Positions 30,801 to 33,800 of a stretch of 64,000 nt of DNA are shown piece by piece. How positions within the stretch are numbered: position 1 is the first letter of the stretch; each line of letters begins with the position of its first letter. The DNA is taken from the NCBI RefSeq assembly GCF_017348835.2, contig NZ_CP071375.1. One strand, written 5' to 3'. The position numbers were made by a program. The DNA is from Escherichia coli (GTDB lineage Bacteria; Pseudomonadota; Gammaproteobacteria; Enterobacterales; Enterobacteriaceae).

Positions 30801-33800
30801 CGACAAGGCGATATCCTAAAAATTAGCTAGCAGGCAACTTTGATGGCATAGATAATGTTTTTAGTAAAAAAGAGTTGACTGAATATAATACAGCCTCTTC
30901 CTACATAAGAAGGAATGTGCTCACAAAAAAAAACCATTAGTCTGCTTCCTGTTCTTACAATAATCAGTATTATGTATTTTATTTATATAGCAAAATATGC
31001 TTGTTACACCTGTCATAATTAGGCATGGTAAAATTATTGACTGAACCCTGGGGGAGAAAGATGCACAGTGATTATTATAATATGGTTTTTGGTGAAAAAT
31101 TGGCCAATATTTTATATGAAGCTAACTCTCAATTTTTTTACGAGAGAAATGTCATAGAAGAGGCAGTCAACGCTTTATTCTGTGAGCGTGAAATAATAAA
31201 CAACAAGAACATAATAAAGAAGCTGATGTTCTTTTTGTCAGATGTTAATCACACCAAGAAAGATGTTGTTCAGAGCGCACTTAATATTATCATTGACATT
31301 ACATCAGGTGATATTTGAGATTTTACATAAAAGATAATCTCTCAAGGAGTCTTATCTGAAAACGAAATATATAGTCCCTCTCGTTTTGTAATATCGATTG
31401 GCTTTGTTGAATCGGTTACGTACCCCGGAGCCGGTCATATTTTCAGGTAATACACACGCTTTCAGACATTTCGGCTTTCGTCATTTTGGTATCATGGGCA
31501 TAGCTTCTGCTACCTGACCATCATAATCACGCAGCTTCAGTGAAGCAGTGACCACCTGTTTAACCCGGTGTATCGTTATGATCTTATCCAGCAATTGAAC
31601 CGCCCCGGGTTTCCTGGAGAGTGTTTTATCTGTGAACTCAGGCTGCCAGATCATCGTTTCCGATGGAAGCATAATAAGCTTTTTCTGCTTCTGCCGGTGG
31701 AATATGGCCCTGCCTTTCCAGCAATCGTCGATTGTTATACCAGTCCACCCACGTGAGTGTGGTCAGCTCATCATACTGACACGTGCATTACCCCTACCGC
31801 GATAATGCAACCGTACAATATAGGGCGTTTCCTAAACGCAGCCCTCATCACTCCAATCCAACAAGACACAGCATTTTTGATCACGAAGAAAGACAAATAA
31901 TTTCCGTAAATGTTTCCGTTGTTACAAATAACAACAGTGTTTTATATTTCTTTGGCCTCAGGCCCGCGCATGTTGCCATTCGATGTCATTTTCCTGACTC
32001 GTTTCTTCTTTATGGTGTAGTGTGATCTTCACTTTATGGATGCTAACAATATGAAAAGAAAAATTATTCCCGTGCTAATCGGTTGTACGCTCTCTTTCTC
32101 TGCCCTGGCGGCACAACCTACGGCTGAGCGCTATGTCGTCAGTTTTCCAGAAGGCACGCACGTGAACTATGCCGGCGCATTTGCCAGTGCATTCCCGAAC
32201 GGCCTTCCGGTTGGGATAGGTTCTGGCCTGCTGTTCACCGGTAAACAGGGCGATGCCCTGACATTCGCAACTATTACCGATCGCGGTCCGAACGCGGATT
32301 CACCGAAAGAGGGGAAAAACGAAACTAAAATTTTCGTTACGCCAGATTTCGCGCCGCTGCTGATGACGATTCGTGTACAAAACGGCAAAGCGGAGGCCAT
32401 CGATCCCCGTCCTCTGCATGACGATAAAGGCGCGATCAACGGTCTGCCGCTGGCAAGCGACGTGATTGGCTCCACCAATGAAGTGGCCTTCAGCGACACG
32501 TTACATAGACTGAAGGGGGATAATCGCGGGCTGGATACGGAAGGGATCACTCCGGATGGTAAAGGAGGTTAGTTCCAGTTTGCTCACTCGTGTTAAGAAG
32601 GTATTGATCACCTGAACATCCGAATTGGTGAGCCTATTTAATAGAGCGGGTGGTATACCTTTACTAACAATCGCTTTGCGGTGACTTTCGTAGTTTTTAT
32701 TACTCATTGTTGATCCTCAAAAATCATTGTATGGCGGCATTGATCGTTTCCAGCAACCTTTACTTACTCACTTCGAACTGCATCCTCGTAGACTGTTCCA
32801 CTACAATAATCGAAAAGGCGCGGATGTCCATTCAGGTATCCCGCTAATACGTATAGCAATAACAATGGCTTATGCGGCGCGCGCTGTTCACCCTTGTGCC
32901 AGATTTTTATATTGGCAATTGCCTGCTGTAGCGATTTACTGGAAGCTATTGATATCCCTGGCAGTGAAATAATTGCGATCATGCTCGCAAATTTTCTGCT
33001 GTTCAAGCCTGCAAGTGAAGATATATTACCTTGATCTCATTTGTTTTTTTGCTGCCTGTTCTGAGAACGTATAAGGACATTCTCCATGAATAAACTCCCT
33101 GATCATCTTCCGCGGCGGTATATCATCGAAGCTATCCATTTATGGGATGCGGGAGAAACTCATCAGTTCCAGCCTGCGCGGTTGTATGAGATTGAATATC
33201 ATGGCCGACGTTACCCCTCGAAGGCGATTGCTGGCATCGCAGCGACATTGATGACGGGGACGCAATTTACCCCTGCGGATTTCACCGGCGGAATAAAATC
33301 TAAATGTGTCAAGCTACTCATAGAGCAGGGATTTCATATTCATCTGGATAAAGCCGCTGCGGCTCCCATAGCCGACGTTCTGTTCCCGGATGAGTTGCCG
33401 TCGCAGGAGACATACCTTGAAGGTGCGGCGATAAAGGTGACAGTAAACCGCTATGAACGCGATAAAAAGGCCCGAGATAAAGCGGTCGAACATCATGGAT
33501 GCCAGTGCAACGTATGCGGTGTTGATCTGGTGAAGATCTATGGTGATATCGCTGAAGGCTTTATCCATGTGCATCACCTGGTGCCGCTGTCAGCCATTAA
33601 AGAGGATTACCAGCTGGATCCAGTTAATGATTTGCTGCCTGTGTACCCTAATTGCCATGCGATGTTGCACCGACGCAAACCACCGTTTACGCCGGAGCAG
33701 TTAAAAGCGCTGATGGATGCGAATAAATCAAATTAATGAACGCTCACCTTTCGCGCCAAAACTGCAAAATTGCTTCTACAAACTTGTCAGAAATAATCCC

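Follow-up and report, generated by a model that had tools for sequence, protein, structure and literature searches.

Transposition into TA targets by Tc1/mariner/IS630-type elements and serine recombination with a 2-bp core have a common junction anatomy, with TA at both participating sites, one TA left at the joint, identity over 2 bp and symmetric flanks. Ordinary deletion pseudogenes, as found in decaying islands and prophages, arise by small deletions with 2-bp joints in a mosaic of insertion sequence (IS) fragments and CP4-type remnants. Deletions adjacent to an IS, or attending its excision under the IS-excision enhancer (IEE), form nested series with one fixed end and short microhomology in IS-rich genomes of the enterotoxigenic (ETEC) and enterohaemorrhagic (EHEC) type, IEE-enhanced excision with flanking deletion being described in the literature (Kusumoto 2011 as reviewed in 10.1101/2023.06.07.543989; PMC9943667). 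All three kinds of system bear on the locus described here, which lies in a stretch of 64,000 nucleotides (nt) of Escherichia coli contig NZ_CP071375.1 (assembly GCF_017348835.2), hereafter the window. In it, the gene of a secreted protein of family PF13449 is cut at a breakpoint, S1, and the junctions formed by S1 in this and other genomes suggest an enzyme-driven, site-selective deletion hot spot.

The window shares with ordinary deletion pseudogenes the small deletion, the 2-bp joint and the mosaic surroundings, but it differs from them in that S1 is nucleotide-precise, re-used at least 14 times, joined at TA and associated with palindromic flanks. Random decay does not predict such precise re-use, near-constant TA and a palindromic flank signature. 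The resemblance to IS-mediated adjacent deletion lies in the nested series with one fixed end, whereas the fixed end of S1 is situated inside conserved coding sequence and no IS is present there in any allele. From TA-targeted transposition and serine recombination the locus differs in that no element, terminal inverted repeats or recombinase was found, the likeness being one of junction anatomy. By analogy, S1 acts like the origin of a nested-deletion series running from a transposon end, yet there is no element at the fixed end. To our knowledge, S1 has not been described as a TA deletion hot spot, and a limited literature search for a known hot spot of this kind returned nothing relevant.

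The joint in the window was located by megablast of positions 31000-33800 against 5,426 complete E. coli genomes. In many genomes the match runs no further than query position 1572. This corresponds to window 32571, immediately 5' of the final G of the stop codon, and identity with the intact gene stops exactly there. With a slash for the breakpoint, the left parent reads …GGT AAA GGA GGT TA/C TGG CTG… (…GGAGGTTA/CTGG), the right parent …TTGTTGAGATA/GTTCCAG… (…GAGATA/GTTCC), and the window …GGA GGT TA/G TTC CAG…; GGT TAC TGG has thus become GGT TAG, and the joint itself creates the stop codon (32570-32572) with which the open reading frame (ORF) abruptly ends. The parents are identical at the joint over TA, as they are at eight other resolved joints. 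Compared with three sequenced arrangements, the window lacks 1,879 bp (EH09-18-41 type), 2,554 bp (94-3024 type) or 1,050 bp (PSS-07 type), so the loss is at least 1,050 bp and its size depends on which of the three was the parent. Since the missing DNA was not found anywhere else across the window, the event is understood as a deletion, and not as an inversion or transposition. It removed the last 279 codons together with downstream island DNA and joined both ends at a TA present in each parent, the new joint reading GGT TAG.

The truncated gene is readily identified. Its codons 1-173 are ∼100% identical to codons 1-173 of WP_000823243.1, a secreted "esterase-like activity of phytase" protein of 452 amino acids (aa; Pfam PF13449) that corresponds to orf34 of the Shigella resistance locus (SRL) island. 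At ≥99% identity the full-length gene is present in 2,191 of the 5,426 genomes, and it also occurs on plasmids, where 67 of 69 matches are full length and hence yielded little as a source of further junctions. An intact 452-aa gene occupies the same fec-IS1-YmgB locus in other strains; the SRL island has the upstream module of fec, IS1 and YmgB-like gene in common with the window, and both there and in strain E2865 an IS66 element comes after the intact gene. The full-length protein matches PF13449 with E=4e-43 and 148.6 bits (gathering cut-off 27.6) over residues 55-391 and profile positions 4-284, whereas the 173-aa remnant alone gives no Pfam match at E≤0.1. The break interrupts the segment that varies least across the family, …RGLDTEGITPDGKGG/YWLCDEYGPF… (…DGKGG/YWLCDEYGPF). 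The remnant ends at residue 173, just before W175-F183, and is without residues 174-452, about two thirds of the domain; the invariant motifs of the complete domain (WLCDEYGPF, NRGFEG, NDNDFG) are all 3' of the break and missing. The window copy is therefore the remnant of a PF13449 member and not a functional member. The sequence-only reading had proposed the N-terminal part of a larger secreted protein, possibly phytase-like, cut by a rearrangement, and each element of that proposal is borne out, the rearrangement being the deletion with its stop-creating TA joint.

An AlphaFold2 (AF2) model of the full-length protein is all-beta with a predicted TM-score (pTM) of 0.80 and matches generic beta-propellers only (TM≤0.37); among solved structures, no PDB chain matches the full-length protein by sequence. 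Judged by this model, the remnant keeps ∼9 of ∼29 predicted strands, about a third of the propeller. Given that it also ends in the invariant motif, we infer that it would be incapable of forming a closed propeller and without enzymatic function. In strain F2_81, whose sequence differs from the window by five bases over 29000-36000, the NCBI Prokaryotic Genome Annotation Pipeline (PGAP) annotates the gene as "incomplete; missing C-terminus", a pseudogene. The exact window junction occurs in 2 of the 5,426 complete genomes, both from pig isolates. The ORF is thus very probably a truncation pseudogene made by deletion, an unremarkable one that annotation already records. A genuine short secreted protein of ∼175-180 aa would draw on the intact start and signal peptide, the clean stop and the calling of the exact 173-aa product as a gene on 203 contigs, some of the records with the name "oxidoreductase". 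Homologues are, however, 445-457 aa long across Enterobacterales (Enterobacter, Pantoea, Scandinavium, Serratia, Yersinia and others) and not ∼180 aa, the stop is a product of the deletion joint, the chain ends inside an invariant motif with no Pfam match of its own, and PGAP calls a pseudogene. Neither homologues ending near residue 173 nor a 3' part kept by inversion were found among the sequences checked. Homologue lengths and junction anatomy thus rule out a natural short protein, to which we assign hardly any probability. The product encoded by 32051-32569 has been deposited at NCBI as "oxidoreductase", a name that is unsupported in view of the PF13449 parent and the lack of a family match for the fragment.

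The truncation itself is one of many alternative deletion alleles carried by the locus. The left breakpoint S1 (…GGTAAAGGAGGTTA/) was found joined to at least 14 different DNA sequences besides the native CTGGCTG. These partners comprise three sites between a helix-turn-helix (HTH) gene fragment and a 61-aa ORF, one site inside DUF5983, one located 5 nt upstream of DUF987, one at about codon 10 of DUF932, two around the Ag43 (flu) gene, one inside istB of IS21, one inside the HNH gene at window 33433, one at pitB in a different island context, and three sequences without placement. Protein-level data add a second S1 fusion site inside DUF5983 as well as further fusion partners. A single allele (L025) breaks 1 nt before S1, and a smaller breakpoint cluster with at least two partners is situated 10 nt upstream. 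The 173-aa product, present on 203 contigs, is encoded by at least three different DNA junctions, the same protein arising from each since a stop codon is completed whenever the partner starts with G or A. At least four S1 junction types are found in closed genomes and so are not assembly artefacts. S1 is a recurrent, nucleotide-precise, one-sided breakpoint that has been used independently in other E. coli.

The joints at S1 have properties in common beyond the fixed left end. TA stands directly before the retained DNA at all nine resolved right-hand parental sites, against a background of 5.3% of positions. Eight of the nine fully resolved TA joints show exactly 2 bp of identity, where by chance 44% would be longer, and the dominance of 2 bp implies that annealing strength is not being selected. 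There is no extended imperfect homology between S1 and its partner sites, which rank no higher than other TA sites. Around the TA, G is enriched two bases before (10 of 14 native sites; background 0.29, p about 1e-3) and C two bases after (15 of 22 native sites, p about 2e-4), giving a dyad-symmetric G-N-TA-N-C with an ideal near GGA-TA-TCC. The base exactness, the strict TA, the lack of selection for longer homology and the symmetric flanks together suggest, as the probable origin of the S1 events, a protein-mediated process of cutting and joining centred on TA, and not random decay, random slippage or end joining.

Other breakpoints at the locus are also re-used. A second recurrent breakpoint outside the window lies at residue 219 of the protein (L003:6710, gene nt ∼659, …AAATGGCGTCA/); its four partners (a CbtA fragment in L002; P0007, P0009 and P0013) are joined at CA or CAG and not at TA. 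Right-hand endpoints recur with different left partners at L002:5948 (L006/L007 and L009) and at L002:6021 (L010 and L011), both of them TA sites in right-hand parental DNA that is deleted in the window. A metagenome scaffold (L017; ENA ERZ28583552) carries the module of YmgB gene, IS fragment and truncated gene ending at S1 in another context, with a shf/capU/virK/msbB-like cluster on the left and, on the right, S1 leading into pitB followed by gss, yghU and hyb; it implies a large deletion from a second island copy, probably pheV-side.

The most far-reaching reading takes the sequence at S1 as a cis-acting pseudo-site of a TA-specific transposase- or recombinase-like cut-and-join enzyme that would erode the neighbouring CP4-type island repeatedly and one-sidedly in natural E. 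coli populations, and we put its probability at roughly 0.3. Several results weigh against it. No transposase or recombinase for S1 was identified in the loci examined, no IS end abuts S1 in any of the sequences examined (14 DNA partners), IS30 at S1 was found in 0 of the 5,426 genomes for the one orientation tested, and S1 bears no significant likeness to the termini of IS1, IS2, IS3, IS30 or IS66. The palindromic signature, besides being modest, emerged post hoc, and some other junctions at the locus are of ordinary kinds without TA (TT, 1 bp, a 6-bp repeat and a 12-bp direct repeat). The pseudogene reading of the truncated gene faces essentially no contrary evidence; its upstream region and signal peptide are intact, and a 173-aa secreted fragment could still be made. 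Part of the one-sidedness probably comes from selection, since leftward deletions would remove the fec iron-uptake genes and rightward ones remove CP4-type remnants, toxin genes included.

Among mechanistic alternatives, a TA-specific enzyme that uses S1 as a strong pseudo-site and weaker TA sites on the right, deletes the DNA between them and leaves one TA best fits the junction anatomy of the three models considered, and we regard it as tentatively plausible. Such an enzyme could be a transposase of the Tc1/mariner/IS630 type or act by a serine-recombinase-like 2-bp crossover. The invariable TA at the resolved sites, the joints of exactly 2 bp and the dyad-symmetric flanks all accord with it, as does endpoint re-use on both sides (S1 at least 14 times, L002:5948 and L002:6021 twice each); yet no such enzyme gene, element, inverted repeats or excised circle was identified in the loci examined, S1 is itself only a half-match to the motif, and the hot spot at residue 219 uses CA/CAG. 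The scar could instead have been left by an IS with a 2-bp target duplication that once stood at S1. Deletions would then have formed by recombination with the former IS or by its sloppy strand transfer or primer realignment, and excision of IEE type would have left the TA without the IS. Reports on IEE-dependent excision describe larger deletions and joining at microhomology, ETEC and EHEC lineages commonly carry IEE, several S1 alleles are from ETEC or pig isolates, and the window has an IS30, which makes 2-bp duplications, at a distance of 12.6 kb. This course of events is nonetheless unlikely, in that no IS abuts S1 among the 14 DNA partners and ∼20 protein-level tails, IS30 is absent from S1 as given above, and the best 120 matches include neither reciprocal products nor C-terminal gene fragments starting at S1.

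Alternatively, S1 might be the place of a site-specific nick or double-strand break whose left end is protected while the right is resected to a variable extent before end joining at TA, or, in a variant, of replication stalling with template switching. The left end fixed within 0-1 nt, the right ends spread over more than 20 kb and the microhomology matching the last two bases of the fixed end, which at the second hot spot are CA, would all follow. We consider this improbable as well: the DNA adjoining S1 contains neither a hairpin nor any other unusual structure (z about +0.7) and, on reading the sequence, no Chi-like sequence stands at the expected distance; end joining should favour longer microhomology, whereas exactly 2 bp dominates; and resection does not lead one to expect a palindromic signature on the right. 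A mobile unit rather than a deletion, that is, a left module (YmgB gene, IS fragments and the 5' part of the gene) with S1 as its right end inserted at many TA sites, would account for the same left end abutting many sequences, once in another context (the pitB side of L017), and TA at every target would fit a TA-specific transposon. It has very little probability, however, considering that the displaced DNA is not elsewhere in the window, nearly all variants retain fec-IS1 as their left flank, the right flank being co-linear to nanS throughout, 2,191 genomes run straight through S1 as an intact conserved gene, and the plasmid copies are full length.

A number of more specific candidates were tried and rejected. 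A surrogate IS end at S1 had its best match, 8/16, in an IS3-like terminus (p=0.04, uncorrected for the 77 tests), and the 12-nt similarity between S1 and some IS30 flanks seems to be BLAST extension by chance. By eye only, the right-hand sites or the exact cut position did not fit type IIS (GGATG 9/13) or EcoRV-like restriction, Chi-directed RecBCD trimming, integron GTT crossover, or Din-invertase and IS608 TTAC models.

Of itself the pseudogene is of minor importance, PGAP having flagged it already; in practice it shows chiefly that the name "oxidoreductase", given to the 173-aa product in draft annotations, is an error. The importance of the locus lies in a natural catalogue of at least 14 independent deletions that have one precise end in common, are joined strictly at TA and bear a symmetric signature at their sites. 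Should an enzyme be responsible, the intact gene with a counter-selectable marker downstream would offer a simple assay of an activity that forms deletions and shapes islands in pathogenic E. coli. The locus would then also help to explain how islands shrink without IS scars, by a site-directed route of decay that differs from both IS-adjacent deletion and random microhomology joining.

The features of the window around S1, the fec-nanS part of the leuX-side island, are collected in the table.

Table. Features at and around the deletion joint S1, in window coordinates.
Feature	Position	Strand	Length	Remarks and basis
fecI	28789-29310	-		
IS1	about 29547-30314			
IS3-family fragment	30385-30721			intact outer inverted repeat (TGATCTTACCCAGCAATAGTGG…) at 30385
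YmgB/AriR-family small gene	31025..31318	+		conserved left module, always with the remnant
IS3-family fragment	31577..31790	-		outer inverted repeat intact at 31577 (TGATCTTATCCAGCAAT…)
Sigma-70-like promoter match, weak, 5' of remnant	31919..31948	+		consensus match only
Remnant ORF, first ATG	32036..32572	+	178 aa	ORF listing
Truncated coding sequence, second ATG	32051..32572	+	173 aa	codons 1-173 of 452-aa parent and joint-made TAG
Predicted Sec-type signal peptide	32051..32113	+	21 aa	conserved LAA cleavage motif at end; sequence reading and homologue alignment
Antisense ORF, wholly within truncated gene	32167..32550	-	127 aa	no family match, no annotation
Chimeric ORF, overlaps remnant	32501..32707	-	68 aa	ORF listing
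Deletion joint S1, TA common to both parents	32570..32571	.	2 bp	base-level comparison
Phosphorothioate-DNA-dependent restriction endonuclease remnant	32806..32949	-		∼48 N-terminal codons of 290 aa
HNH endonuclease, intact, right neighbour	33086..33736	+	216 aa	ScoMcrA_N and HNH
nanS, nanM, nanC	from 33744 onward			

An ORF with a signal peptide, an abrupt end at a junction and overlapping junk on the opposite strand had been noticed from the sequence, and all of these are present. The start used by homologues and by PGAP is the second ATG, at 32051, and not that at 32036. Read from there, the N-terminus of the remnant, MKRKIIPVLIGCTLSFSALAA/QP, has the make-up of a classical Sec signal peptide: the MK(R/I)K n-region, the hydrophobic core and the LAA/ motif are found in 22 of 22 aligned homologues and in the window. 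A lipoprotein signal (LIGC lipobox) was considered and rejected; Cys12 is not conserved among the 22 homologues, whereas the LAA end is, so the apparent lipobox is fortuitous. The 68-aa ORF on the opposite strand is a chimera and a by-product of the deletion joint, its first 45 codons (32707-32573) being those of the 61-aa hypothetical protein WP_000066585.1 (annotated in strain 67-1) and its last 23 (32572-32501) antisense of the truncated gene. The 127-aa antisense ORF is most likely a chance ORF. A near-perfect Shine-Dalgarno sequence (TAAAGGAGGT) lies within the fixed left end of the hot spot (window 32556-32571) and in some fusion alleles comes to stand a few bases 5' of the ATG of the downstream gene (for example DUF987 in L019), which may be coincidental.

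To the left of the remnant, the second IS3-family fragment is cut internally at the TA at 31790, a site that is re-used as a deletion endpoint in strain ZYB62. To the right, the restriction endonuclease remnant belongs to the DNA that the deletion placed beside the truncated gene, and the HNH gene contains, at window 33433, the right end of a different S1 deletion allele. Strain JCC-EE 7 has here the full restriction gene and McrBC-like genes, on which basis the right-hand locus was once a DNA-modification-dependent defence locus. In L014 and L016, recombination of 12-bp direct repeats (TTTGCTGCCTGT; equivalents of window 33059 and 33631, L002 6928-6939 and 7511-7522) has removed most of the HNH gene, which the window keeps. 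The nanS gene is an intact 326-aa ORF (33744-34724, minus strand) with 3 substitutions relative to WP_000991415.1, and PGAP marks a partial "sialate O-acetylesterase" pseudogene at nanS in F2_81 and several other genomes. A complete IS30 (18740-19960; 383-aa transposase ORF at 18747-19898), flanked by a 2-bp AC duplication, lies between the leuX side and the fec operon. In the O26-type E. coli E2865 (L012; NZ_AP018808.1, 5472000-5521500), the segment of fec, gene and IS66 runs toward the leuX integrase and not toward nanS, and is thus inverted relative to the window, probably between IS66-family copies.

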